Shown here one piece after another: positions 199 through 14,871 of a stretch of 15,913 nt of DNA (the stretch's first letter is position 1; the number at the start of each line of letters is the position of its first letter). Both the position numbers and the translations under genes were made by a program. Under the pieces are notes generated by a model, which worked only from the letters and a program-made list of their open reading frames with translations, did no database searches and was not told the origin of the DNA. Where the stretch lies: the NCBI GenBank assembly GCA_037147375.1, contig JBAWVI010000007.1, positions 1 to 15,913 on the forward strand, read 5' to 3'. This stretch comes from an archaeon. Lineage in GTDB: Archaea; Iainarchaeota; Iainarchaeia; Iainarchaeales; CSSED10-239.

Positions 199-3051
199 TT
201 ATGGGAACGTATGAGTATACAAATCGCTCTGAACCCAATTAGAAGTTGCATATACTGTTAAATAATTAGGATCCCCATAATCTTCTGTTTCCATTATAGC
301 TCTTGCCTTGAAGTTTGTTGGTTGATTAATCCATATTGGTCCTGTGCTATTATAATTCCAACCATCACAAACTAAGTGTCCATTGAACAATCCAACTGGT
401 TCGCTACCATCCATTGTGTAACAAATTGTTGAACCAGGTGTTGGTGAAGTAAATGTTACATATGAACTTAAATAACTTGCACTTGGAGCTGCAGGTTTAG
501 GTATTCCATTTGCACAAATTATTGAAGTATATCTTTGACCTACTCCATGCTGTCCCCAATTAGTAAACTGATTACCATATGCTACAGGTCCATTACAATT
601 AAAATTACCTTTAACATATTGTAAATTTGGCTCGAAAGGTGCAGCTACAAATGTAAGACCATGATTTTGACAAAATAATTCTCCAACTGATGGCAACTTA
701 GCTAATTGATCATCTGGATTATAAGTTTGAGAAAGACCTAACCAAACCTGATTATAAATTACTGTATGTAAAGAATTAGATAAATTATTTGTACATGTAG
801 TAAATCTAATGTCCATTGGAGAATTAGGAGTTTCATCACCACATCCTGTTGGTACTCCACCTGTATATGTTAATTCATAAACAGGTACACTTAAAATATT
901 ACAACGGTCCATAATATAATTTTCAGTCATTATACTGCTTGCAGTATATCCTGACTTAAAACCAACTGCTTTCACTTGTGTATCACCAGTTAAGGTTATT
1001 GCACCACTATAGATTGGTGCACCAGGTGCTGGAACTTGCATAGGAGTTGATCCATCAGTTGTATAACGTATTTCTGCACTATTTGTAATTGAACTTATAC
1101 TTACATCAAGTGGAAGTACATAAGTTCCTCCTGTTGGACTAGCAGTAGGTAGTGCACATTTAAGTGTATAAATCTTAGTCATGATTCCACTTGGATTCAT
1201 TGGTGATAAACATCCAATTGCCTTTAAAGTTTTTGTTCCTGTAATAGGAATTGCGCTTACATATTGAGTTGATGAACAATTAGGATCTGTTCCATCAAGT
1301 GTATAGTGGACTATTGCACTTGGTGTACTACAACTTAAAGTTACTGATTGGTCATTATAGTATATACCACTATTTAGACTTGCAGTTGGTGTTGCAACAG
1401 TACCTACATTATTAATTGTCCATGTACTATCTTTATATGCTGAATTTGCAGCATTACTATCATTAGTTGCTGTAAATCTTAATCTATAAGTTCCAATTGT
1501 ATTACATCTAAATGGAGCATAACTTAATGTTGATGGAGCTAAATTAGTTCCAAGAGTAATACTTGGTGCATAAACACTATTATATGCACAATTAGAGGTT
1601 GAAAAACCAGTGGAGTCATCTTTAACATCCACTTTTAATGTATATCTTACTGTTGACGCATTTTCTAATGTATTTACATCAACATTGAAATCAGTATTTA
1701 AAGTTGTTGATCCAGTTGTTGGAGTTACATTTATTTTCATTGGAGTTGGTGGTGTAAGCACAAATGAAGCTGCTACTGTTATATTTCCTTGAACATTTGT
1801 ATCTGTTCTTGGATTAGCTGTTGAACCATCACTCCACTGATTAAAATCATAACCTGTGTTTCCAACTGCAGTTACTGGAGTTCCAGAACCACCCTTAGCA
1901 ACTGTTTGTGGAGAAACACCACTTATTGTACCATTTGGACCTGCTGTGTATGTTAAAGTATAATTTACACCCACGTTTTTAACAAAGGTTATACGTATCC
2001 AATGATTACGATCAACTGCATAAAATGTATATGAATTTCCTAAGTGACCAAATGATTGTACGGTTCCATCTACATTTACTTCACCTATAAGATAACCTGG
2101 ATTTGCAGACCATGTAAATTTTTGATCATTTCCAGCAGGAACTAATACTTGACCACTAGGAATTATTGTACCGCCCACTGTACCGTCACTAGGAAATGTT
2201 CTAACAAATGCAAAAATAGTATAATCTGCTGGTGGAGTTGGATCTTCAATTCTACAAGTTACATCAATTGTATGATTTGCTTGTACATTAATAAAATCAT
2301 AAGTTAATGTAGGAGATATTACTTCACTCCCATCTACCATTAATGTATCAATCTCATAACCTGTATCAGGGATAATTTTATATGATTGATCATTACCTTC
2401 ATTAACATCTGTTGCACCTAAAGGAAATATTGTACAATTAGGACCAGCTGTTGATTTGATTGTATATGTATTTGTTGGTGAACCAACTAACTTGAATGTT
2501 GCATGAATTGTATGATTTGATTGTATATCAGTAAATGGATACGGGTTAACTACTGTCGTAGATGTACCATCAATATAAAGTTTATTAATTTCGTAAGTTA
2601 CGTTAGGTGTGATTACATATGATTGATTATCACCTTGATTAACAGTTGTAACACCAGGTGGTGTTACTGTACCATTAGGATTTTGTGTTGCAGTTATAGT
2701 AAAAGTTCCTAAACAATTTGATATGTTTAAAGTACAATTCGAATTACATGAAAGGGTACCTCCACCATTATAACCTTCAGTGGCACAATCATAAGGCCCA
2801 AATAATAATCCATCACATTTTTCTCCAGGATCTAAAGCACTATTACCACATGGAGTTCCATAGATTGGTTCATTAAGATCACCAATCATTCCATTATAAT
2901 CTAAATTTGCAATCTCAGTTGCTTCCGCTGTTTTTTTATTAATGTTAGATAAATAAAAAGTTCCTAAAATTATTCCTCCTATAACTAGAACTCCTAGTAT
3001 TGCTAGAATTTCTATTGATGTTTGTCCTTTACTTTTATTTTTATTAAACAA
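199..3051 (-). CDS. Large secreted/surface protein with class III (archaeal type IV pilin-like) signal peptide; modular putative adhesin
   Basis: 950-codon ORF. The start is TTG (3049-3051), preceded by the same 11-nt GGTGATTAAAT leader as the paralog at 3259-3645. The N-terminus MFNKNKSKG|QTSIEILAILGVLVIGGIILG has a short basic region, a G|Q cleavage context, the QxSxE motif and a hydrophobic helix (Class_IIIsignal/DUF361-like). A six-Cys module spans aa 68-113 (CGNSALDPGEKCDG...). Four B-repeat-like modules of about 70-80 aa span aa 117-431. An Ig-like Thr/Ser-rich segment spans aa 437-555. CHB_HEX_C-like modules (IxYTxDG[ST]xP) lie at aa 560-632, 640-714 and 858-950. An unassigned six-Cys domain spans aa 715-855. 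Confidence 0.9.
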   Translation of the reverse strand: MFNKNKSKGQTSIEILAILGVLVIGGIILGTFYLSNINKKTAEATEIANLDYNGMIGDLNEPIYGTPCGNSALDPGEKCDGLLFGPYDCATEGYNGGGTLSCNSNCTLNISNCLGTFTITATQNPNGTVTPPGVTTVNQGDNQSYVITPNVTYEINKLYIDGTSTTVVNPYPFTDIQSNHTIHATFKLVGSPTNTYTIKSTAGPNCTIFPLGATDVNEGNDQSYKIIPDTGYEIDTLMVDGSEVISPTLTYDFINVQANHTIDVTCRIEDPTPPADYTIFAFVRTFPSDGTVGGTIIPSGQVLVPAGNDQKFTWSANPGYLIGEVNVDGTVQSFGHLGNSYTFYAVDRNHWIRITFVKNVGVNYTLTYTAGPNGTISGVSPQTVAKGGSGTPVTAVGNTGYDFNQWSDGSTANPRTDTNVQGNITVAASFVLTPPTPMKINVTPTTGSTTLNTDFNVDVNTLENASTVRYTLKVDVKDDSTGFSTSNCAYNSVYAPSITLGTNLAPSTLSYAPFRCNTIGTYRLRFTATNDSNAANSAYKDSTWTINNVGTVATPTASLNSGIYYNDQSVTLSCSTPSAIVHYTLDGTDPNCSSTQYVSAIPITGTKTLKAIGCLSPMNPSGIMTKIYTLKCALPTASPTGGTYVLPLDVSISSITNSAEIRYTTDGSTPMQVPAPGAPIYSGAITLTGDTQVKAVGFKSGYTASSIMTENYIMDRCNILSVPVYELTYTGGVPTGCGDETPNSPMDIRFTTCTNNLSNSLHTVIYNQVWLGLSQTYNPDDQLAKLPSVGELFCQNHGLTFVAAPFEPNLQYVKGNFNCNGPVAYGNQFTNWGQHGVGQRYTSIICANGIPKPAAPSASYLSSYVTFTSPTPGSTICYTMDGSEPVGLFNGHLVCDGWNYNSTGPIWINQPTNFKARAIMETEDYGDPNYLTVYATSNWVQSDLYTHTFP
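1759..2703 (-). repeat. Tandem array of four protein-domain repeats (InlB B-repeat / Flg_new-like) inside the 950-aa CDS
   Basis: aa 117-187, 196-267 and 277-357 share the pattern [FY]T[IL]...G...V..G..Q.[YF].I.P..GY.I..[LV].VDG....Y.F..[IV]..NHTI...F. aa 364-431 is the related GYDFNQWSDG...NITV..SF type. Residual DNA identity remains at the NHTI-coding segments (AATTGTATGATTTG at about 2268-2281 and about 2507-2520). Confidence 0.7.
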
Positions 3052-3734: not shown

Positions 3735-4307
3735 ATGGATATAAAGCAAATCCTAAGTAAGGATTTAAAAAAAGCAGATAAATTTAAACAAGCAATTCTA
3801 AATCCAGAAAATAAAAGAAGATATAGACCTTGGTCAACAGTTTATAAAAACCATAAAAGAGAGCCAAGTTTATTTATTGGAGCATACGATAAAGATAAAC
3901 TGATAGGAATTATTTTTGGATATATTAAAAAAAGTAAAATATTAATTGGAGAGATGGCAGTTTCTGAAAAATATAGAAATAAAGGGATTGGTAGTAAATT
4001 AATTAATTTTTTTGAAAAACAAGTAAAAAAATTAAATAAAAAAGAAATTGTATTAGGTTCTTGGGAATCTGCAGAAAAGTTTTATTTAAAACAAGGATAT
4101 AAACCACAATTGTTTATTCAGATACCACATGATAAAGTTCCTAAAGATTACAAAAAGATGGGTTATGATATTATTAAAGAAACAAATTACAAAGATGCTA
4201 AAAAATTAACAATTAGAGTAAATAAATTAGATGATAAATTAAAACAAAAAGCAAAAAAGGATTTTAATACAGATGATGTGATTTATTTATTTAGGAAAGA
4301 AGTATGA
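3735..4307 (+). CDS. GNAT-family N-acetyltransferase
   Basis: 190-aa ORF. Acetyl-CoA-binding motif A: IGEMAVSEKYRNKGIGSKLINFFEKQVKKLNKKEIVLGS...AEKFYLKQGY (V..x.YRxxGIGxxL...A..FYxKxG[FY]). Confidence 0.85.
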   Translation: MDIKQILSKDLKKADKFKQAILNPENKRRYRPWSTVYKNHKREPSLFIGAYDKDKLIGIIFGYIKKSKILIGEMAVSEKYRNKGIGSKLINFFEKQVKKLNKKEIVLGSWESAEKFYLKQGYKPQLFIQIPHDKVPKDYKKMGYDIIKETNYKDAKKLTIRVNKLDDKLKQKAKKDFNTDDVIYLFRKEV

Positions 4308-4656
4308 TTTAGATATAGCCAAGAAGAAATAGCCGCAGAAAAAATATTTGCTTAATTTAAAAATCATCTACAATTTTAATTAATCTACGATAACTCATTT
4401 GACATCGTTCCTTTAATGTCAGTAGATACATATAAACCAAATTTTTGTATATTTCAGTAGAATACTTGAGAATAAAAGAAGGGACACTAACTTTGTAACG
4501 TTCTTTAAACTATCTTGTAGAAAGAAATAAAAACAATTAGATACTACTATACAACTGAAGTGGTCAATAATATAAATGTAAATTTATATTATCACCTAAA
4601 AATAAGGAATTAAAGAGGGTTTCTACAGACCCATAAAAATTAAGAGGGTTTCAAAG

Positions 4657-5622
4657 ATGGATACTTATTTAGTTACAGGATGTGCTGGTTTTATTGGGTT
4701 TAATTTTATCAAAAAGATGTTAATAGAAGGTAAAAATATAATTGGAATTGATAATCTAAATAATTATTATAATCCAAAACTTAAAAAAAAAAGATTAAAT
4801 ATTTTAAAAAGATATAAAAAATTTATATTTAAAAAGATAGATATAGCAGATTATAATAAATTATATAATTTTATCAATCAAAAAAATATTAATGTTATTG
4901 TTCATCTTGCAGCACAGGCAGGTGTTAGATATTCATTACAAAATCCTTGGGCATATGAATCATCTAATAATTTAGGTACATTAAATGTGTTCGAATGTGC
5001 AAGAAATTGCAACATTAAAAAAGTGGTATTTGCATCATCTGCATCCGTTTATGGTGATTTAAATTCAAGTTGGTGTGAGTATAAAAAAACGGCTCCAATT
5101 TCATTGTATGCAGCAACTAAATTATATAATGAAAATTTAGCATATGCTTATAATCATTTATATAATATTGATTTTGTTGGTTTGAGATTTTTCTCTGCAT
5201 ATGGAGAATATGGTAGACCAGATATGGCATTGTGGATATTTGCAAAAAATATATTGGAAGATAAGCCAATTGATGTATATAATTTTGGGAATATGAAAAG
5301 AGATTTTTCCTATATTGATGATATTGTATCAGGAATATCCGAAGCAATTAAATATAATAAATCGAGTTTTGAAATATTTAATTTAAGTTCTGGTGGTTCT
5401 ATTACTTTGAAAAAATATATACAATTAATTGAAAAACATATTGGCAAAAACGCAAAAATAAATTATTTACCATTGCAAGCGGGGGATATTTTAAAATCAG
5501 AGGCCAATTTACAAAAATCAAATAAATTATTACGATATTATCCAAAAACAAATATTGATGTGGGGGTTAATAAATTTATTAAATGGTATCTTGAAAATTG
5601 GAATTGGATAAAAGATTTGTGA
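4657..5622 (+). CDS. NAD-dependent epimerase/dehydratase (extended SDR), UDP-glucuronate 4-epimerase-like
   Basis: 321-aa ORF. It has the Rossmann motif VTGCAGFIGFNF, the DNLNNYYNPKLKKKRL segment typical of UDP-GlcA 4-epimerases, and the catalytic SSASVYG and YAATK (YxxxK) motifs. The stretch GLRFFSAYGEYGRPDMALWIFAKNILEDKPIDVYNFGNMKRDFSYIDDIV closely matches the GLRFFTVYGPWGRPDMA...KRDFTYIDDIV signature of that subfamily. Sugar specificity is inferred only. Confidence 0.88.
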   Translation: MDTYLVTGCAGFIGFNFIKKMLIEGKNIIGIDNLNNYYNPKLKKKRLNILKRYKKFIFKKIDIADYNKLYNFINQKNINVIVHLAAQAGVRYSLQNPWAYESSNNLGTLNVFECARNCNIKKVVFASSASVYGDLNSSWCEYKKTAPISLYAATKLYNENLAYAYNHLYNIDFVGLRFFSAYGEYGRPDMALWIFAKNILEDKPIDVYNFGNMKRDFSYIDDIVSGISEAIKYNKSSFEIFNLSSGGSITLKKYIQLIEKHIGKNAKINYLPLQAGDILKSEANLQKSNKLLRYYPKTNIDVGVNKFIKWYLENWNWIKDL

Positions 5623-6084
5623 TCTTTGGATATACCATTTTTAAAACCAAGAGATAGTGGAGAGATAGAATATAATGTTTGATTTTAGCAAACAAATTGC
5701 ACGTTATGCATACATTGTTGTTGATTCAGAAAACAGATATATATAAACCACATTAAAAATTACTTTACAATTCTACAGATAAACCCATCACAAAATGTGT
5801 TGTAACAATATTTTGATGTAAAAACAATGTGGAAAGAGTTCTTATATACACCCGAAAAGTTTTTATTCATATAGTCTTACAATTCATGTATACATCACTC
5901 TTATTGACCTGCGATTAATAGGATATATTTACAATAATTTGGTTAACGTCACGTATAAACAACTTCATCAATCTATTAATGTGCAGAACTCAGCTTCATG
6001 GTTTCATAAGGAAAAAAACAAATAGTTAAACCAAATATAAAATCCCGTAAAGCAGGAAACAAATATTACAAGAAATGATTAAAT

Positions 6085-7248
6085 ATGGAAAACAAAAAAA
6101 TTAATTTACTTGTTGTGGGATTAGGGAATTGGGCAAAAAGTTCTTTACTTATGTTAAAAGAACACAATATAGAAAATATAGTAGATAAATGTATATTAAT
6201 ATCCAGATCTAAAAAAAATACATTATTTGTAAAGAAATTAAGACTAAAAATAAAACATAAAATATATACTAATTTGAAACTCGCTTTATACGAAAATAAT
6301 ATTAACGCTATATATATATGTACTCCTGATCACTTGCATATACATTTTATAAATAAAATATTAAAAATTACAAAAAATAAAGAAAAAATACACTTTTTAA
6401 TAGAAAAGCCTTTTGGGACCAATACAAATTCAATTATACAAACTATGAACAAATTAGGTTATACTTACAAAAAAGGTCATTTCTTCCCAACAATGAATGC
6501 AGGGTTTGTTATGATAGATTGGCATAAAAAATATAGTCCTCAGCAGAAACAATTAGTTCACATGATTAAAAATAATAATCTCGGCAAATTAAAATCAATT
6601 AGAATAAGATATCTTGATAAAAAAATGGTCTTGTCTAAAAAATTCATTTCTTGGTTTAAAAAAACAAATGTATTTTCATTTTTAGCGGGGCAATATATTG
6701 ATCTAATATTTCATACATTTCCTGATTTTGTGCCCAAAAAAATGGTAGTTGTGGCATATAAAAACCGTGATGGATGTATAACAGAAGCAACATTGTGCAT
6801 AAATATTCAACATAAAATAAAATTATACAGTGCTCTAGTTACTATGATAGTAACTTGTAATGAACCAGATAATAATTATACTCTAACAGAACAGGATATT
6901 GTGTTTGTTTTTGAGAACGCAAAAATAAAAATAGATACTACTGGGCGTGATTTCGAATTAATTGATAAGACTGGAATCTCATTTATAAATGTACATTCTA
7001 GAACAGGTCTTACAGATGCCTGGGAAAATGATTTCGTTACATATGGATATACTTACGAATCACAAAAGCGCTGGTTATATACAGTATACAATATTATTAA
7101 TAAAAATAAAACTATTTCTGAATCAATTAAACAATATCCAATAAGTATATTCCCTGAAATCATAATAGAATATTGTAATAGGAGTTTAACAAAAGTTAAA
7201 ACAAAATCAAATATTATTTTTGGTAAGATAAGTAAAATAAAAATTTAA
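6085..7248 (+). CDS. Gfo/Idh/MocA-family NAD(P)-dependent oxidoreductase (divergent)
   Basis: 387-aa ORF. N-terminal Rossmann KINLLVVGLGNWAK, then ICTPDHLHIHFINKIL...HFLIEKPF, which matches the family signature (TPxxxH...EKP). I cannot recognise the C-terminal half by eye. The gene converges on the M20 gene with only an 18-bp spacer (7249-7266). Confidence 0.72.
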   Translation: MENKKINLLVVGLGNWAKSSLLMLKEHNIENIVDKCILISRSKKNTLFVKKLRLKIKHKIYTNLKLALYENNINAIYICTPDHLHIHFINKILKITKNKEKIHFLIEKPFGTNTNSIIQTMNKLGYTYKKGHFFPTMNAGFVMIDWHKKYSPQQKQLVHMIKNNNLGKLKSIRIRYLDKKMVLSKKFISWFKKTNVFSFLAGQYIDLIFHTFPDFVPKKMVVVAYKNRDGCITEATLCINIQHKIKLYSALVTMIVTCNEPDNNYTLTEQDIVFVFENAKIKIDTTGRDFELIDKTGISFINVHSRTGLTDAWENDFVTYGYTYESQKRWLYTVYNIINKNKTISESIKQYPISIFPEIIIEYCNRSLTKVKTKSNIIFGKISKIKI

Positions 7249-7266
7249 CAAATTAGAAATCTGATT

Positions 7267-8460
7267 TTAAATATCATTTTCTAATATAGAATATATAAAA
7301 TTTTCAACAACGTTAATTGCTTTGATTATATCTCTCAAATTTATAAATTCATTATCTGAATGAGCAAAGGATAGATCCCCTGGGCCAAAAACAATTGTAG
7401 GTATATTTTTTTTAAGTACAAATAATCTAGAATCACAACTTGCAGGAAATCCTTTTACATCCGGGTAAGATACAAGCGTTTTGCTACACACAGATATAAA
7501 CTTACTTAGATATTTGTTTTCTTTAATTTCATAAGGATTATTATGCAGAGAATTAAAATATATATTATAATGTTTCTTAGATTTAACAGTAAATAATTTT
7601 AAATACTTTTGTGTGCCTCTTTCAATAGCACATTTTAATTCATTTTTAATTTGAGTAACATTTTTATTTGATAAAAAACCAATAGCCCCATAAAAAGTAA
7701 CTTTATTAGGCAATGTTGAATTAATCAATCCTCCTTGGATTTTACCAATATTTAATTGAATTGGTAATGGATAATATCGAAAATAAATGTGATTCTTTGA
7801 TTCTTTAATTAAAGATTTCCAGTATTTATTTAACTCTAAAATAATATATGTTGTTTTATAAATTGCATTATCACCTTCATTAAATTTACCCATATGTGTA
7901 GATTTACCATATATATCAACAGTAAACCATAATGCACCTCTACAAGCATTGCAAATAACAAAATTAGTAGGCTCAAAAACAATAGCAAAATTAGCTTTCT
8001 GTTCATTTTGTAACAAAGATAAAGTACCATTACCACCAGTTTCTTCACAATTAGCAAAATGGATTATAATATTCGGAATTTTATTTTTTGAGTTATGTAT
8101 CTTTTTAAGTAATCCTAAAACTAAAACCACTTGCCCTAAAGCATCGCAAGAACCTCTCCCATAAATAGTATTATTAAAAATAGAACATTTAGACATCTTT
8201 GCACTTGCAGGAACTGTGTCAAAATGTGTATTTAATATGATAGTATCTTTAGAATTGTTATTTAATTTTATACGAATACTTTTTTGTCCTAATTCATCTG
8301 TCTTTGTAAAATCAGGATCAACACCTAGACTTTTTTTAATGGAAATAATTTCAAATTGTAAATTCAATTGTTTCAGAACATTACATATTATATCTATCCT
8401 TTTTGAATCTGTATCTGCATTAATGAGTTTAGAAAGTGTTCTTATTAAAAATTCTTTCAT
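7267..8460 (-). CDS. M20-family metallo-amidohydrolase (ArgE/DapE/LysK-like deacylase or peptidase)
   Basis: 397-aa ORF. Metal and catalytic motifs appear in order: LNTHFDTVP, GRGSCDALG, NCEETGGNG (catalytic EE), FEPT, GALWFTVDIYGKSTHMG, FAHSDNEFI. The ATG overlaps the stop of the upstream ATP-grasp gene (ATGA at 8457-8460). Confidence 0.85.
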   Translation of the reverse strand: MKEFLIRTLSKLINADTDSKRIDIICNVLKQLNLQFEIISIKKSLGVDPDFTKTDELGQKSIRIKLNNNSKDTIILNTHFDTVPASAKMSKCSIFNNTIYGRGSCDALGQVVLVLGLLKKIHNSKNKIPNIIIHFANCEETGGNGTLSLLQNEQKANFAIVFEPTNFVICNACRGALWFTVDIYGKSTHMGKFNEGDNAIYKTTYIILELNKYWKSLIKESKNHIYFRYYPLPIQLNIGKIQGGLINSTLPNKVTFYGAIGFLSNKNVTQIKNELKCAIERGTQKYLKLFTVKSKKHYNIYFNSLHNNPYEIKENKYLSKFISVCSKTLVSYPDVKGFPASCDSRLFVLKKNIPTIVFGPGDLSFAHSDNEFINLRDIIKAINVVENFIYSILENDI

Positions 8461-9671
8461 ATCGTTCTTATTTTTATTTTTTTAATAATATTATCACAAT
8501 TTATATTAGATTCTTTGCGAGAATTTCCTTTTGTAATAACAAATGCAACCATATCAGACAAATTTTTAAAATCACCTAAATATGTATTTTGTTTAGGCTC
8601 GGATCCTTTCCACCACCTAAATTCAACAAACCCAGGCATTTTAGAAATATTTGATTTATATTTAATATCTTTATAAAATCCATTTTTAAAAAAAATACAT
8701 TTAAATGTAACCCCTATACTTTTACTAATAAACACGTCTTTTTTTCTAGGCACCTTTCCTAACGCAACATAAATTGCAGCCACAATACTATTTGTACCAT
8801 ATGCCATATTATTTAACTTCCAAAAATTAGGGGAACCTAACCTTCCTGCCATTTCAATTATCTTTGGACCATCACAAGTATATATTAAATCTCCTTTAAC
8901 AACTCCGTTTTTTATTTTTAAAATATTAATTGCGCTAACAAATAGTTTGCATAAATTTTTATACTTTTCCTGCGATAAATTCGTTGGTAATACATCTCCC
9001 TGTTCAACAAAAAAAGGATTATATTTTTTATATAAATATATTCTATCCGAAAACCCAGTTATATAAATTTGATTATTTGAAACAATGGCTTCTATACTAT
9101 GTTCACTTCCTTTAAGAAATTCTTGTATAATAATATTATTCGAAACGGTTCTTGCATGAGAATACGATTCTAAAAGTTCTCCTTCATTTCTAACTTTTCT
9201 CACTCCTCTTGCACCAGCACAATCTACTGGTTTTATAACAAAAGGGTATTCAAAATGTTTTGTTTTACTTTTAAAGTCTTCAAAAGAATCCACTTTCATT
9301 GTTCTAGGAACCGGAATTTGCTTAGAACTTAACAATGTATACATTAAATATTTATTAGTAAATAATTCAGCTTGTTTAATAGATAAGCCAGGGAACCTAT
9401 ACATTTTAGAAATATGCGCAGATAGTTTAACCCCCTTTTCAAACCCAAAAGGGATTACTCCTGCAAACTCATCTTTTTTCCTATGCTTTTTTAAATAAAA
9501 CTTTATCTTATCAATTTCATCAAGTGATATAAAAAGCTGCTCATCATTTGCATCTATCCTTAAATCACGTTCCGATATAATAAATAAATCGAATCCATTT
9601 AATTTAATAAATTTTAACCCCTCTTCTATTCCTCCTCCAACCCCAGTTATTATAATTTTTTTTCGTTTCAT
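8457..9671 (-). CDS. ATP-grasp ligase (ATP-grasp_4 / L-amino-acid-ligase-like by eye)
   Basis: 404-aa ORF. N-terminal KKIIITGVGGG pre-ATP-grasp domain. Then NKYLMYTLLSSKQIPVPRT...YPFVIKPVDCAGARGVRKVRNEGEL...IIIQEFLKGSEHSIEAIV...VKGDLIYTCDGPKIIEMAGRLGS, which fits the ATP-grasp pattern (K-loop, E-x-[FY]-[IL]-x-G, ...[IV]E.N.R.gG). The ATG overlaps the stop of the upstream gene (ATGA at 9668-9671). Confidence 0.8.
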   Translation of the reverse strand: MKRKKIIITGVGGGIEEGLKFIKLNGFDLFIISERDLRIDANDEQLFISLDEIDKIKFYLKKHRKKDEFAGVIPFGFEKGVKLSAHISKMYRFPGLSIKQAELFTNKYLMYTLLSSKQIPVPRTMKVDSFEDFKSKTKHFEYPFVIKPVDCAGARGVRKVRNEGELLESYSHARTVSNNIIIQEFLKGSEHSIEAIVSNNQIYITGFSDRIYLYKKYNPFFVEQGDVLPTNLSQEKYKNLCKLFVSAINILKIKNGVVKGDLIYTCDGPKIIEMAGRLGSPNFWKLNNMAYGTNSIVAAIYVALGKVPRKKDVFISKSIGVTFKCIFFKNGFYKDIKYKSNISKMPGFVEFRWWKGSEPKQNTYLGDFKNLSDMVAFVITKGNSRKESNINCDNIIKKIKIRTI

Positions 9672-10675
9672 TTTTTCACAGATAATATCATTTTTTCTAG
9701 AAAATCAGCCAAGGTAATATTATTCAAATCATAAAATTTTTCAAATTGAAGACCAGTAAGTGATGTGCCTGGATTAAATTCTAATAAATATAATTTCCCA
9801 TCTTTCGATTCTCTAAAATCAAAACGGCCATAACTGTTTAAATTTAGTTTTTCTATTAATAATTTTATAATCTTCAAAATATTATTTGTAATTTCAATAT
9901 TTACTTTTTCCATTCGTTTTTCTCTTTTATCTTTTAGTATGTTTGATTGATATTTATAATCTTTCCAATTATTAAATATTACCTCACGTAACGCAATTGA
10001 ATGAAATCGGTTATCAAAAAAAGCATACGGAGTAGAAATATCGTTTCCATCAATAAATTCTTCAATCATCATAGGGGAATCGTATTTTTTAGAATGATTA
10101 TACGCAAATCTTAATGCATCATTTCTATTTTTGAAAATATTTTTATTCCCTTTTATTAATCCAATACTATTATCTAATTTAGCTGGCTTTACAATATAAG
10201 GACCTGAAAAAGGGATTTTAATTTTATAATTTATAGTTTTATACGATATTGTTATCCAATTCGGAGTTAATATACCCCATTGCCTAATAATACTTTTAAA
10301 ATGATCTTTGTTTTGAGCGAGAGCCTGAATATATGTTTCTTCCATTACATATGGAATTCCTAATAGTCTCATAGTAGATGGGAAATGCGCACCATCATAA
10401 ATATCATAACCATCTGTTATATTCCATCCCACTAAGTTATTCGTTTTTTGATATAATAATTTATTTAAATCATCTTTAGAACAAATAGGTATTAACTCAA
10501 AACCCTTACTTTCTAACGCGGCAATGATACAATTTATTTCTATATCTCTTTGAAGAAATCTAGATTTATCCTTAAATATTAAATCATTCTCTTTATTTTG
10601 TTTTTTTAACCAATTATTACGCCTTTCATAATATAATAATATCGTCATTTTATTAATCATCATTTGTACCCCCAT
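9668..10675 (-). CDS. D-alanine--D-alanine ligase-family ATP-grasp enzyme
   Basis: 335-aa ORF. Motifs: KDHFKSIIRQWGILTPNW, GPYIVKPAKLDNSIGL, MMIEEFIDGNDIS, and GRFDFRESKDGKLYLLEFNPGTSLT (compare Ddl gRvDf...dG.iyllEvNt.PG.T). The start is uncertain. The longest ORF start (10675) overlaps the upstream gene by 23 nt. An ATG at 10663 or 10660, preceded by GGGGGT, is at least as likely. Confidence 0.8.
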   Translation of the reverse strand: MGVQMMINKMTILLYYERRNNWLKKQNKENDLIFKDKSRFLQRDIEINCIIAALESKGFELIPICSKDDLNKLLYQKTNNLVGWNITDGYDIYDGAHFPSTMRLLGIPYVMEETYIQALAQNKDHFKSIIRQWGILTPNWITISYKTINYKIKIPFSGPYIVKPAKLDNSIGLIKGNKNIFKNRNDALRFAYNHSKKYDSPMMIEEFIDGNDISTPYAFFDNRFHSIALREVIFNNWKDYKYQSNILKDKREKRMEKVNIEITNNILKIIKLLIEKLNLNSYGRFDFRESKDGKLYLLEFNPGTSLTGLQFEKFYDLNNITLADFLEKMILSVKK

Positions 10676-11693
10676 CTATCTGTTGCATAATCTTTTGTAA
10701 TAAAAATAAATTGCCCTTGGCTTGGTTATAATCACACAAATATTCTTGAGTCCTTTTTTTTTCATATATACATTTTAAAGCCGTTGATAGAAATGCATAG
10801 ACTTTATTTAATTCTGGCAATTTAGATATGTAATTATTATTAGGATATTCTATGTTCATTATAATCTTTTTTGTATAATTGCACTTATTATATTTTAAAA
10901 TCTGTATTTTATCATAATCCCATAACACATTATCAAAAGATAATTTAATTTGATAACCTATATTCGGATCGTTTTTATCGTCAGCATATAATATTAGTTT
11001 ACGAATTCTTTCTAACCAGGTAAAGCTACTATGGCCAGTAATATTACATTTATCTAATTTTATCAATACATCTATACTATCAACAACAGGCACATCTAAT
11101 TGTGTAATGGGAAAATAAGTATAATTAATTACCTTTACAGATGTATTTGTTGGTTTTAAAATAAAAGTTAATAAATCTAATGGATGGGTTATATCAGCAT
11201 AAACACCCATAGTCTTTCTATAATCTAAAAATCTATCCTTTCCCCAAAGAAAGCTACCTTTTTTAAAAATTAAATTTTGTTTGTGTAAAAAGTTTTGCAA
11301 TTTTAATATTATTGGACTAAACCGTTCAACATAATTTACAAAAACTATCCTATTTTTAAAAAAGCTATCTAACTCATTACAATATTTTAACGTGGATACC
11401 AATGGTTTCTCTGAAATTAAGTCTATATTTTTTTTTAATTTAGATATTTCACGAAATATATTTTCGTGAGTATTATCATTTGTAGTCACAATTAATACAT
11501 CAAACTCAACTTTGAGTAATTCTTCAATTGATGAAAAAAATGGATAGTCATTAAATAATTTATTAACAGGTTTTTTTAAATCAGAAATACCTATAATTTC
11601 AATAGAATTATGACTTTCTGAAAAATAATTTAGACATCTAATAAAACGAGTGCCAGAGAATCCTAGCCCAATCAATGCAATTTTTAATTTCAT
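10653..11693 (-). CDS. Gfo/Idh/MocA-family NAD(P)-dependent oxidoreductase; first gene of the ligase operon
   Basis: 346-aa ORF. Rossmann motif MKLKIALIGLGFSGTRF, then VTTNDNTHENIFREISKLKKNIDLISEKPL (TPxxxH...EKP-type signature with N in place of P). AGGA lies 5 nt upstream of the ATG. Confidence 0.8.
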   Translation of the reverse strand: MKLKIALIGLGFSGTRFIRCLNYFSESHNSIEIIGISDLKKPVNKLFNDYPFFSSIEELLKVEFDVLIVTTNDNTHENIFREISKLKKNIDLISEKPLVSTLKYCNELDSFFKNRIVFVNYVERFSPIILKLQNFLHKQNLIFKKGSFLWGKDRFLDYRKTMGVYADITHPLDLLTFILKPTNTSVKVINYTYFPITQLDVPVVDSIDVLIKLDKCNITGHSSFTWLERIRKLILYADDKNDPNIGYQIKLSFDNVLWDYDKIQILKYNKCNYTKKIIMNIEYPNNNYISKLPELNKVYAFLSTALKCIYEKKRTQEYLCDYNQAKGNLFLLQKIMQQIDGGTNDD

Positions 11694-11741
11694 ATAATCC
11701 TTTTTTATATTTTTAAATAAATGTAATTAACAAATAATGAC

Positions 11742-13016
11742 TTAAAAAGATTCATTTTTCTTAATTTCGGTTTTACCATACATATATGGTTGTAAAATTT
11801 CTGGAATTTTTATGGTTCCTGCTTCTGTTTGAAAGTTTTCTAAAATAGCCACTAAAGTTCTAGTTATTGAAATGGCCGTACAATTCAAAGTGTGAACATG
11901 ATATTTATCACCACACTTTGTCTTGGCACATATATTTGATCCTATTGCTTGTGTTTCGGTTAAATTACTACAAGAACCTAATTCTATATATTTATTTCTA
12001 ATTGGACTCCAAACTTCAATATCTACTTGCTTTTTTTTCCAATCTCCTAAATCTCCTGAACACATTTGTAAATACCTAACATTAAAGCCTAAATCTAAAA
12101 GTAGGGTTTTTTGATTAAACAATAAATCGTTAAAATATTTATCAGAATCCGTTGGTTTACAAATTATAATTTGTTCTACCTTGTCGAATTGGTGTACTCT
12201 AAATAACCCTCTTTCATTTACTCCATGAGATCCTTTTTCTAATCTAAAACACGCTGAAAAAGAAAATAATTTAAGGGGTAATTTTTCTTCATCAATAACT
12301 TTATTTGTCAGCATAGCAATTAACGATAATTCTGAACTCCCTATTAGATATAAATCATTATTTTCAATTTTATATATTGAATCCTTAAAATCATTAAACG
12401 AAATCACTCCATCACATGCTTTTTTATTAACCGCAAATGGGGGTGCGATAAATAAATGTCCTTGCTTTTGCATAAAATCCTCAGCATATGCGATAAGGGC
12501 TTGATTTAAAAGAGCTAAATCAGCTTTTAAATAATAAAAGCCCTGTCCAGATAAATTTCTCGATGAATCGAAGTCAACCACATTTAAATTTTCTGCAAGA
12601 TCAATATGATTTTTTAAGCTAAAATTAAATATATGTTTTTTTCCAAAATTACCAATCTCTTTGTTAAAATTTTCATCTTTACCTATAGGAGTATCATCTG
12701 AAATTATATTTGGAATTTGTTCAACTATTTCATCAAATCTTAATTTAATTTTGTCTTGTTCTTGATTAATTTTTTTAATTTCATTATCTAAATCAATAGT
12801 ATTCTCTGATAATTCATTTTCCATTTTGTTTTTTATTCCCACAGAAATTTTATCTCTTATAACTACAAGCTCATTTATTTTAGATAGATTTTGGTGAAAT
12901 ATTATATCTAACTCAACAAATTCGTCTAATAGATTTAATTTACTTTCTTGGAATTTATGTTTAATATTTTCTTTTACTAGTGTTAGATTTTCACGTAGAA
13001 ATTTTATATCAATCAT
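11742..13016 (-). CDS. serS: Seryl-tRNA synthetase (class II)
   Basis: 424-aa ORF. It has the typical N-terminus MIDIKFLRENLTLVKENIK and a coiled-coil tRNA-binding arm. Motif 2 is FRLEKGSHGVNERGLFRVHQFDKVEQ. The motif 3 region is HTLNCTAISITRTLVAILENFQ. A GGTG Shine-Dalgarno sequence lies about 10 nt upstream of the ATG. Confidence 0.95.
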   Translation of the reverse strand: MIDIKFLRENLTLVKENIKHKFQESKLNLLDEFVELDIIFHQNLSKINELVVIRDKISVGIKNKMENELSENTIDLDNEIKKINQEQDKIKLRFDEIVEQIPNIISDDTPIGKDENFNKEIGNFGKKHIFNFSLKNHIDLAENLNVVDFDSSRNLSGQGFYYLKADLALLNQALIAYAEDFMQKQGHLFIAPPFAVNKKACDGVISFNDFKDSIYKIENNDLYLIGSSELSLIAMLTNKVIDEEKLPLKLFSFSACFRLEKGSHGVNERGLFRVHQFDKVEQIIICKPTDSDKYFNDLLFNQKTLLLDLGFNVRYLQMCSGDLGDWKKKQVDIEVWSPIRNKYIELGSCSNLTETQAIGSNICAKTKCGDKYHVHTLNCTAISITRTLVAILENFQTEAGTIKIPEILQPYMYGKTEIKKNESF

Positions 13017-13346
13017 ATATAATACACCATATATTCGAGAAACATTAATATAATATATAATACATTTTATTTTTATAAGTTTCTATATTAAAAGGAAATA
13101 AATTTTAGCAACTTTTATACACTAGTTTAACCAGATATATAATATGATTAAAGATAGAAAATAATCCAAATCGCTTCGCGATTTAATGTTTATCAGGAAC
13201 CATTACCTATACCTGAATTTACGGTCTTCAGCATATTATTTAATAACTAATCTACAGCCCAAAAAGAAACATCTGCTTTGTTTGAAATTTTATTGATTAG
13301 GCATAAGCTCTCAAATAGATAGTTTCACATTATTTTTCAAAGTAAA

Positions 13347-13793
13347 TCAAAAAAAGGTTTTATTTTTTGCAATAATCTTTTCCATAAATTTTAACTGGGA
13401 GGGTATAATTATATATTGTTGATAATTATCTTTATTTACCCACTTATAATCACAAATTTCTTTTTTTTGTAACTTAAACTTCTGATTTTGTTTTATTTTC
13501 GCAAAAAATACACTTCTTTCTTGACCTTCATAATAAATTCTAGTCTCTTTAAATTTCTGTTGTCTAATCTCATTTGGCCAATCAAATTTATCTATATATT
13601 TACTTTTGGATAATGACTTCATTTCAATACCTAATTCTTCTTTTACTTCTCTTTGTATTGTATCCTCTTCTGTTTCATTATTTTCAACACCACCAGCAGG
13701 AATTTTCCAATAATTTGATTTTCCGGTAGCAGAAACTAATATAAACTCTTTTTTATTATTTAAAATAAAAACAGATACCCCTTTTCTATACAT
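13347..13793 (-). CDS. Nudix hydrolase
   Basis: Complete Nudix box GGVENNETEEDTIQREVKEELGI (Gx5Ex7REUxEExGU). The ORF track starts at a GTG at 13805. I prefer the ATG at 13793 (MYRKGVSVF...) because GGTG sits 4 nt upstream of it. Confidence 0.88.
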   Translation of the reverse strand: MYRKGVSVFILNNKKEFILVSATGKSNYWKIPAGGVENNETEEDTIQREVKEELGIEMKSLSKSKYIDKFDWPNEIRQQKFKETRIYYEGQERSVFFAKIKQNQKFKLQKKEICDYKWVNKDNYQQYIIIPSQLKFMEKIIAKNKTFF

Positions 13794-13854
13794 CAAACAC
13801 CACACATTATATTTAATTTAATTATTTATACTTTTGGACGATAACAATATTAAT

Positions 13855-14871
13855 TTAGTAATCAAACAAACCTTTCTTTGATATTTCATCTATTGGCCTT
13901 GCTTGCTTGTTTAACTTCTTTTGTATACTGCTTGCAAGCTCTTCCTTAAACCCATGCATTGTGTAAACTTCTCTTGGATTTACTTCTTGCACAAATCTTA
14001 AAAGATTTGGATAATCACAATGATCTGAAAGATGATATACCTTACTTGAACGATTGTAATTCCAACCTGTTGCAATGTATGAACTAACTTCCTTATTTAA
14101 TTGATGGGAAAGAGAATTAATCAAATCTTTTGAAATTAGATTCATTGGAAGAATTAAAATATTACTCTCGGAGAGGTTGTGATCAAGGAGTTCATATTGT
14201 CCAAGAAATATAGCATTCTTTTCATAAACCTTTGAATAACTATACGTATCTTTATCAACTATTGGTTTTTCATTTAAATATTTATTAACAAGTGAAATTA
14301 ATTCTTGATTCTTTCCAAGAGTGTATCCTCCAATTAACACAAACTTATTATTATCTATGTCTTTCTTAATGGATTGAGAGAAACTCGTGTATATTTCATC
14401 TCTGTCTCCAAATGAAAACCCAGGTTTACCAAAGGTTGATTCCATAATAAGTATATCTGCGTGTATTGGCTCTGCTCCTTTTAAAAATAAAGAATCAGAA
14501 TTATTAAAATCCCCTGTGTAAAGAATTGTTTTTCCTGTGCCTTCATCTTCAATAAAAAACATTGTGCTCCCAAGGATGTGTCCAGCATTAAGAGGAGTAA
14601 TTGAAATAGTATCATTTATTTTTATTTTTTTATTATAATTAATTTCAGTAAAGTTTGTTATGCTTCCAGATCTTATCTTATTTTGAACATCTCTAATTAA
14701 TGAAATTGTTTCTTTACTTGCAAATGTATTTTGAGTTGTGGATGTTAAATGATCAGAATGAGAGTGAGTGATAAATGAATCAATCTCATCTTCATGAGAT
14801 TTTGATTGGTCAATATGTATCTTTTTATTTTTATCAGTTATTGATAAAAAATTATTATAACGAAGTTGCAT
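13855..14871 (-). CDS. Short metallo-beta-lactamase-fold beta-CASP nuclease (COG1236-like; resembles ligase-associated exonuclease / archaeal mRNA 3'-end processing factor homologs)
   Basis: 338-aa ORF. MBL motif ITHSHSDH, then PLNAGHILGS, YTGDFN, ILIMESTFGKP (beta-CASP motif A context), GGYTLGKNQELI, and the C-terminal HLSDHCDYPNLLRFVQEVNPREVYTMHG (motifs B/C). A GAGGA Shine-Dalgarno sequence lies upstream. Confidence 0.85.
   Translation of the reverse strand: MQLRYNNFLSITDKNKKIHIDQSKSHEDEIDSFITHSHSDHLTSTTQNTFASKETISLIRDVQNKIRSGSITNFTEINYNKKIKINDTISITPLNAGHILGSTMFFIEDEGTGKTILYTGDFNNSDSLFLKGAEPIHADILIMESTFGKPGFSFGDRDEIYTSFSQSIKKDIDNNKFVLIGGYTLGKNQELISLVNKYLNEKPIVDKDTYSYSKVYEKNAIFLGQYELLDHNLSESNILILPMNLISKDLINSLSHQLNKEVSSYIATGWNYNRSSKVYHLSDHCDYPNLLRFVQEVNPREVYTMHGFKEELASSIQKKLNKQARPIDEISKKGLFDY

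Follow-up and report, generated by a model that had tools for sequence, protein, structure and literature searches.

Gene content, packing and recurrence of the block

The 15,913-nucleotide stretch of DNA analysed here (hereafter, the window; contig JBAWVI010000007.1 of assembly GCA_037147375.1, from an archaeon of the GTDB lineage Iainarchaeota) is AT-rich (GC ~25-27%) and carries a compact block of five enzyme genes next to a gene for seryl-tRNA synthetase (SerRS). Read along the minus strand, the block begins with a Gfo/Idh/MocA dehydrogenase, GfoA (10653-11693, 346 aa; PF01408, E = 1.3e-12), and continues with a Ddl-like ATP-grasp ligase (9668-10675, 331-335 aa, its start being uncertain; PF07478, E = 1.5e-13), an ATP-grasp enzyme of the L-amino-acid-ligase (LAL) type (8457-9671, 404 aa; PF02655, E = 1.7e-18) and an M20 metallo-deacylase of the ArgE/DapE type with a dimerisation domain (7267-8460, 397 aa; PF01546, E = 1e-22; PF07687, E = 7.9e-14). 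A divergent second Gfo/Idh/MocA oxidoreductase, GfoB, lies on the plus strand (6085-7248, 387 aa; PF01408, E = 1.2e-8, N-terminal domain only) and converges on the M20 gene, with 18 bp between the two stops at 7248 and 7267. The SerRS gene (11742-13016, 424 aa), also on the minus strand, precedes GfoA by 48 bp. An earlier note, made from the sequence of the window, had described the five enzyme genes; its coordinates and strands match our map of open reading frames (ORFs) exactly, and its family assignments hold for all five proteins at the level of the Pfam domain or the fold.

The block is packed to the point of overlap. Specifically, direct reading of the sequence bears out the two ATGA couplings of the earlier note, at 9668-9671 between the Ddl-like and LAL genes and at 8457-8460 between the LAL and M20 genes, so that the LAL gene is coupled on both sides, as well as the 18-bp convergent spacer. 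The junction between GfoA and the Ddl-like gene is tight, and its exact overlap length is uncertain: GfoA stops with TAA at 10655-10653, and the Ddl-like frame offers four in-frame ATGs, at 10675 (23-nt overlap), 10663 (11 nt), 10660 (8 nt) and 10648 (4-nt gap), among which the NCBI call of a 331-aa protein uses that at 10663. Of the overlap of 8-23 nt at 10653-10675 that had been noted earlier, the tightness of the junction stands, and the length depends on the start that is chosen.

Three other independent lineages of archaea, represented by the loci L001/L002/L005, L003 and L004, carry the block too, with enzyme identities of 38-57% and pairwise SerRS identities across lineages of 37-65%. 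L005, a 'Candidatus Woesearchaeota' metagenome-assembled genome that the GTDB scan brought up, shares the ORF layout of L001/L002, in which the order is Ddl-LAL-M20-GfoB, then convergent SerRS, then GfoA. L003 reads GfoA-Ddl-LAL-M20-GfoB with a convergent SerRS, and L004, which is truncated at one end, reads Ddl(fragment)-LAL-M20-GfoB, again with a convergent SerRS. Across the window and these loci there are three gene orders, and no foreign gene is inserted among the six. Further, a tblastn comparison of all ORFs found that these six genes are the only ones common to the window and the other loci; hence, flanking synteny has fully decayed, and the six genes have stayed contiguous in three orders. 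The packing recurs as well. L001 and L003 have both 4-nt overlaps, of Ddl with LAL and of LAL with M20; in L004 the second of these is kept, and 2 nt separate Ddl from LAL. GfoB, for its part, follows M20 in the same direction, with an 11-nt overlap in L001 and L004 and a 1-nt gap in L003, and because it is co-directional and tightly packed right behind M20 in three other lineages, it belongs to the block, as the earlier note had assumed in spite of its convergent orientation in the window. The view taken there of a single, tightly packed unit of intact enzymes is likewise supported, and this co-conservation in relatives argues against fortuitous adjacency, which the earlier note had named as the alternative.

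The six-gene neighbourhood is, in short, selected and intact, and is best explained as a conserved biosynthetic module that is lineage-restricted, belongs to DPANN-type (Woesearchaeota-related) archaea and counts SerRS among its six genes. The genomes of DPANN archaea such as Woesearchaeota are very small and encode little biosynthetic capacity; because the module has been kept intact across divergent lineages despite this, it is likely to be important to the lifestyle of these archaea, whether in envelope decoration, in host interaction or through a special metabolite.

The module is rare. Indexed searches of 5.8 billion proteins returned only 2-3 relatives near 50% identity per ligase, the GTDB scan (~185,000 species) found the block in 1 Woesearchaeota genome only, and the scan of JGI metagenomes found the window's own organism only. 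When 1.84 billion cluster representatives were searched exhaustively by HMMER with the profile of the Ddl-like protein, 3 matched at E <= 1e-70 and 18 at E <= 1e-30. The nearest outgroup, a 35% identical Ddl-like protein (P0170), is encoded on a groundwater contig (L012) in the order Gfo - APH-type kinase - Ddl-like - LAL-like (the last also 35% identical), after which the contig ends. Because this order of the core is kept, the combination of Gfo, Ddl and LAL reaches a fifth, more distant lineage. The APH-family kinase lies between the Gfo and Ddl-like genes at 711-1664 (+), with overlapping coding ends, and its best match is to type-II homoserine kinase (62 bits, below cutoff); no such kinase gene is found in the block of the archaeal clade. 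None of the five enzymes reaches an NCBIfam equivalog or subfamily cutoff, and neither literature searches nor profile models yielded a characterised pathway with a matching gene combination. With no more than a handful of relatives found, the block deserves the name of orphan that the earlier note had given it.

Linkage to seryl-tRNA synthetase

SerRS, which the earlier note did not mention, is the only other gene kept beside the block in every lineage, adjoining it in L001, L003 and L004 as in the window. All four proteins pass the serS model TIGR00414 (392.6 bits in the window and 405.2, 469.5 and 443.2 bits elsewhere, vs a cutoff of 301.65), and class II motifs 2 and 3 are intact; the synthetase of the window is canonical. 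That of L001, the Woesearchaeota relative (13530-14696, minus strand, 388 aa), is without ~36 residues of the N-terminal coiled-coil tRNA-binding arm and passes the model despite this shorter arm, its match beginning at model position 51.

In the window, SerRS may head a transcript that runs from 13016 down to 7267, because the terminator scan found no terminator-like hairpin in the spacer before GfoA and a terminator-like site follows the upstream Nudix gene. That site, a hairpin and T-tract between the Nudix gene and SerRS (13166-13186, minus strand; from the consensus terminator scan only), is a possible upstream boundary of the transcription unit. The spacer itself (11694-11741, minus strand, 48 bp) is AT-rich on direct reading and contains the TATA-like element TTTAAAAATATA. 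A scan of the window for bacterial promoters returned fewer sites than shuffled controls, and its bacterial consensus is inapplicable to an archaeon.

Quite possibly, SerRS is a passive housekeeping neighbour that shared ancestry and small inversions have kept in place, in which case the functional unit would be the five enzyme genes. The gene is canonical in every lineage, all of its carriers fall within one narrow archaeal clade, and it has diverged in a different pattern than the enzymes have; in three lineages it is convergent and hence not co-transcribed with the block, and in the window the spacer contains the TATA-like element. Yet SerRS has remained directly adjacent through three gene orders while other flanking synteny decayed, and L001 has it embedded between the two Gfo genes. 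That SerRS is a working part of the module, with serine activation (a serine pool, seryl-adenylate or Ser-tRNA) coupled to a DPANN-specific seryl glyco- or pseudo-peptide pathway, strikes us as unlikely. If it were true, it would be a rare case of an essential aminoacyl-tRNA synthetase embedded in, and co-transcribed with, a small-molecule operon of genome-reduced archaea; the compound made might then act at the cell surface, in host interaction or as an aminoacyl-mimic, and a function would be defined for the uncharacterised 'WNxTDG' subfamily of Ddl-like ligases described below. Either way, the constant link offers a concrete lead, namely that serine may be a substrate or that the module may be regulated together with serine charging.

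Enzyme families and neighbouring genes

The 335-aa Ddl-like protein carries the Pfam domain Dala_Dala_lig_C and scores below the models of true Ddl enzymes (TIGR01205, 85.6 vs a cutoff of 245.65; PRK01372, 84.3 vs 243). Its AlphaFold2 model (predicted local distance difference test, pLDDT, 88; predicted template modelling score, pTM, 0.88) matches many Ddl/VanA structures across all three domains in Foldseek, with template modelling (TM) scores of 0.65-0.75 and identities of 13-22%, and the K-loop, R-x-D and E-x-N of the ATP-grasp fold align. The subfamily alignment places the protein in a distinct subfamily that is marked by WN(L/I)TDG, QNKHH, VKPA..DNSIG and DYxRxDFR, and in which the 'HGxxGEDG' region of the Ddl N-domain is replaced with 'WNxTDG' and the omega-loop K-Y with K-D. 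We rejected a true D-Ala-D-Ala ligase: the scores lie below the model cutoffs, the D-Ala-binding motifs are replaced and there is no murein context. Distant members of the subfamily were also set aside as functional guides, their contexts being unrelated to the block: P0171, P0173 and P0177 are bacterial and lie beside an integrase and an ~800-aa protein, P0125 neighbours an S58 peptidase and another Ddl-like gene, and P0127 stands by itself. At L016 (9006-9941) and L017 (9021-9995), distant bacterial 'WNxTDG' members repeatedly come after a gene for a XerC/D-type integrase, and a convergent gene for an uncharacterised protein of ~700-850 aa comes next; this conserved pairing is separate from the block.

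The 404-aa LAL-type protein matches the Pfam domains ATP-grasp_3/4 and, by sequence, the PDB entries 4dim and 3vot. The best folds for its AlphaFold2 model (pLDDT 94.7) are BL00235 (3vot, TM 0.84-0.86), RizA and BacD/YwfE. The structural placement that the earlier note had suggested for the two ligases has, therefore, put one in the Ddl/VanA-type fold and the other in the L-amino-acid-ligase-type fold. The LAL-type protein keeps all of the invariants of a large uncharacterised LAL-type family, and Pfam LAL_C2 is not detected in it; the K-loops and the E-x-N or E-x-A-x-R motifs of both ligases are conserved across the four lineages. All three of the nearest LAL outgroups that we examined (30-35% identity) lie in sugar-nucleotide/nonulosonic-acid clusters, which carry genes for NeuB, a DegT aminotransferase, a PseB-like dehydratase and a CMP-transferase. 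These contexts suggest sugar-linked acceptors instead of two free L-amino acids.

The M20 protein (397 aa) combines Peptidase_M20 with M20_dimer, and its motifs HFD, CDALG, CEETGG, FEPT and AHS, which comprise the ligands of the two metals and the catalytic Glu, are invariant in the four lineages. It scores 173.7 against the cutoff of 217.6 for TIGR01910 and lies far below the cutoffs of the ArgE, DapE and LysK equivalogs. Its PDB matches are 3pfo and 3ct9, its nearest relatives are ArgE/DapE-type deacylases and peptidases, and there are weak matches to the [LysW]-lysine hydrolase 5xoy and to a model of N-acetyl-lysine deacetylase. M20 enzymes normally cut N-acyl-amino-acid or peptide bonds.

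In both dehydrogenases the Pfam domain GFO_IDH_MocA covers the N-terminal domain only, and neither gave a Pfam match for the C-terminal domain even at relaxed thresholds; the EKP motif is invariant in both across the four lineages. Gfo/Idh/MocA enzymes characteristically act on sugars, cyclitols and sugar nucleotides. The best NCBIfam match of GfoA is the archaeal UDP-GlcNAc 3-dehydrogenase (51 bits vs a 450-bit cutoff), and its profile aligns to 3ec7 and to IolG (3mz0) up to ITHPLD, the His of which aligns with their catalytic His; this His170 and Asp38, at the end of Rossmann strand beta-2, are invariant. GfoB has Ser/Thr-Arg after strand beta-2. In Rossmann folds, Asp at the end of beta-2 goes with NAD and Ser/Thr-Arg with NADP; from these residues, GfoA is predicted to be NAD-type and GfoB NADP-type. 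The orthologues of GfoB are 38-46% identical, its PDB profile matches are to the NAD-binding domains of inositol dehydrogenases only, and neither Pfam nor the PDB offers a sequence match for its C-terminal half. Near residue 203, the GfoB of the window reads GQYID vs GHY(L/V)D/E in three orthologues, such that the putative catalytic His, which was placed by motif similarity (the hhalign alignment ends at residue 184), is replaced by Gln in this genome only. Of the intact catalytic motifs that the earlier note ascribed to every protein, those of the other block enzymes hold, and the window's GfoB departs at this position.

Upstream of GfoB on the plus strand lie genes for a GNAT acetyltransferase (3735-4307) and for a sugar-nucleotide epimerase/dehydratase of the short-chain dehydrogenase/reductase (SDR) type, resembling dTDP-glucose 4,6-dehydratase, GalE and TviC (4657-5622); neither has a conserved counterpart in the related loci, and together they may serve the module as an accessory specific to this lineage. 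Farther out, a minus-strand gene (199-3051) encodes what is probably a large protein of the cell surface or of adhesion (950 aa; three CHB_HEX_C / Fn3-associated domains, one Listeria-Bacteroides repeat). On the other side, upstream of SerRS on the minus strand, lie a Nudix hydrolase (13347-13805) and a beta-CASP metallo-beta-lactamase resembling the ligase-associated exonuclease (13855-14871; 155.8 bits, below cutoff), neither of which is conserved in the related loci. Long non-coding gaps flank the module in an otherwise compact genome, at 5623-6084 (462 bp) and 13017-13346 (330 bp). Neither gave an Rfam match at E <= 0.1 or a convincing small ORF, and the second contains the palindromic hairpin at 13166-13186. 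No tRNA or Rfam family was found within the window. In L001, a GC-rich stretch upstream of the Ddl-like gene was considered as a tRNA-Ser beside the cluster and proved to be an intron-containing tRNA-Lys(UUU) (8588-8781, plus strand; Rfam tRNA, 51.2 bits; missed by ARAGORN) that lies just upstream of that gene. Its 121-nt intron sits in the anticodon loop and contains a ~25-nt direct repeat, and its 3' acceptor/T-arm end is duplicated ~70 nt downstream (~8846-8870). An anti-phage defence system was also rejected, as none of the six proteins has a PADLOC match.

A candidate pathway and its comparison with known systems

We tentatively read the module as a pathway in which amino acids, possibly serine, are ligated in two steps to a sugar- or polyol-type scaffold, with the dehydrogenase pair reworking the scaffold and the M20 enzyme trimming or deprotecting; the stepwise addition of amino acids to an oxidised sugar or cyclitol that the earlier note put forward is plausible. 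Each ATP-grasp ligase would convert a carboxylate to an acyl-phosphate that is then captured by an amine, giving two amide bonds in sequence. L-serine would be the leading candidate for one amino-acid unit, because SerRS is constantly linked and because of the homoserine-kinase-like enzyme in L012. The scaffold, as acceptor or donor, would probably be a sugar, sugar-acid, amino-sugar or cyclitol; a sugar-type partner is suggested by the chemistry of Gfo enzymes, the weak likeness of GfoA to IolG and UDP-GlcNAc 3-dehydrogenase and the clusters of sugar genes in which the LAL outgroups lie, and we also counted towards it the SDR sugar-nucleotide enzyme and GNAT (3735-5622) that are specific to the window. 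GfoA (NAD) and GfoB (NADP) would oxidise and then reduce a secondary alcohol of this scaffold, yielding an epimer, or would produce a keto or aldonate intermediate. The M20 protein would hydrolyse an N-acyl-amino-acid-type bond, of the kind that the ligases make, either to unmask an intermediate (protect-modify-deprotect) or to trim or recycle the product. In the window, a SerRS-headed transcript would tie serine charging and the pathway to one promoter.

Several observations weigh against this proposal. Across the loci, the block is not accompanied by any conserved gene for an aminotransferase, a glycosyltransferase, a nucleotidyltransferase, a transporter or a carrier, and the outgroups that provide the sugar hint of the LAL enzyme are only 30-35% identical. 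The cofactor pairing of the dehydrogenases is a prediction from motifs only, and the exchange of His for Gln could mean that the activity of the window's GfoB is altered or lost. As for serine, the spacer before GfoA, with its TATA-like element, could hold an archaeal promoter of its own in a genome of 25% GC, and the linkage of SerRS could be synteny inherited among related genomes. Finally, both ligase folds are typical of enzymes that join amino acid to amino acid, and the usual substrates of M20 enzymes are of the amino-acid or peptide type, on account of which the product could be purely peptidic.

Such a peptidic pathway, which we regard as a rather doubtful alternative, would have the LAL and Ddl-type ligases join free amino acids or hydroxy acids to a dipeptide, tripeptide or depsipeptide, with the Gfo pair supplying or modifying a building block in the manner of VanH (for instance, by converting a keto acid and a hydroxy acid into each other or by oxidation of the side chain of Ser, Thr or homoserine) and the M20 enzyme acting as a VanX-like dipeptidase that removes a competing or precursor peptide. 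The canonical amino-acid-ligase folds of both ligases fit this account, as do the resemblance of M20 to ArgE, DapE and peptidases, the homoserine-kinase-like kinase of L012, the adjacency of a serine enzyme in SerRS, and the failure to find a sugar-activating or glycosyl-transfer gene conserved with the block. However, the characteristic substrates of Gfo/Idh/MocA enzymes are of the sugar type and not amino acids or hydroxy acids, GfoA has its closest likeness in inositol dehydrogenases and UDP-GlcNAc 3-dehydrogenases, the nearest LAL outgroups lie in sugar clusters, and neither a racemase nor a VanH-type dehydrogenase is present. The vanHAX operon is similar in uniting an oxidoreductase, a Ddl-type ligase and a metallo-hydrolase, and differs in that the block has Gfo/Idh/MocA enzymes and not D-2-hydroxyacid dehydrogenases, and M20 in place of M15. 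With Ddl and VanA the Ddl-like ligase shares the three-domain fold with K-loop, R-x-D and E-x-N, whereas identity is only 13-22%, the host is archaeal and there are no Mur genes at the loci. Similarly, the L-amino-acid ligases BL00235, RizA, BacD/YwfE and DdaF give the best fold (TM <= 0.86) and sequence matches of the 404-aa protein, but at 14-19% identity, and the closest outgroups of the block lie in sugar-nucleotide and not dipeptide-antibiotic clusters. Were the SerRS link mere synteny and the product a simple dipeptide, the module would be a modest addition to the diversity of ATP-grasp ligases.

The systems that the earlier note had excluded stay excluded. Murein synthesis does not fit, as no locus contains Mur ligases, and synthesis of a pseudomurein peptide was rejected (NF053643, 20.1 vs a cutoff of 500; no Mur-type genes nearby). 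The LysW/LysX/LysK system resembles the block in pairing an ATP-grasp ligase with an M20 hydrolase for protection and deprotection. The intergenic scan of the window, L001 and L003 found no small carrier ORF, kinase, reductase and aminotransferase are absent from the conserved set, and the ligases are not RimK-like (LysX model TIGR02144, 36.8 vs a cutoff of 275.6). A carrier-free version of this logic is improbable. In it, a hydroxy-amino acid would be N-acylated by one ligase, the two dehydrogenases would alter its side chain by way of a reactive carbonyl, and M20 would set the product amino acid free. The scheme would pair an ATP-grasp ligase with an M20 deacylase as LysX is paired with LysK, would suit the weak matches of M20 to 5xoy and the N-acetyl-lysine deacetylase model as well as the predicted NAD/NADP pair, and its product could be serine or derived from serine, which would explain the adjacent SerRS; yet such a conversion does not need two ligases, and the block offers neither RimK/LysX-type ligases nor a LysW-like ORF, a kinase or an ArgC-type reductase.

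For the two-step ligation to a sugar- or polyol-type scaffold that we propose, three known systems offer partial parallels. First, the mycosporine cluster uses the ATP-grasp enzyme MysC and the Ddl-like MysD to furnish a cyclic core of polyol origin with two amino acids, of which the second is often serine, and the block shares with it the general pairing of an ATP-grasp with a Ddl-like ligase. The M20 and two Gfo genes have no counterpart there, and, in agreement with the earlier note, the DDGS/EEVS cyclase and O-methyltransferase are absent from the window, L001, L003, L004 and L012. Second, IolG and IolW, NAD-type and NADP-type Gfo/Idh/MocA enzymes, jointly epimerise a secondary alcohol of inositol through a ketone. 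The block has a predicted pair of the same kind, in which GfoA aligns to IolG through the catalytic His, whereas its scores fall far below the IolG cutoffs and the C-terminal half of GfoB is without a match. Third, in mycothiol/bacillithiol-type synthesis, an N-acetyl amino-sugar conjugate is deacylated (MshB) and an amino acid is then ligated with ATP by the CysRS-like MshC; the logic of deacylating and then ligating, and the presence of a gene of an aminoacyl-tRNA synthetase family, are alike, while the enzymes differ (LmbE vs M20, a CysRS paralogue vs ATP-grasp), the SerRS beside the block is canonical and no glycosyltransferase lies in the block. Solving the module would assign a function to several 'dark' families, among them the Ddl-like subfamily and those of the two dehydrogenases, whose substrate domains are unrecognisable. 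Set against these systems, the gene set and its linkage to SerRS are new, whereas each enzyme comes from a known superfamily and the likely logic, of ATP-grasp ligation combined with redox tailoring and a deacylase, is familiar.

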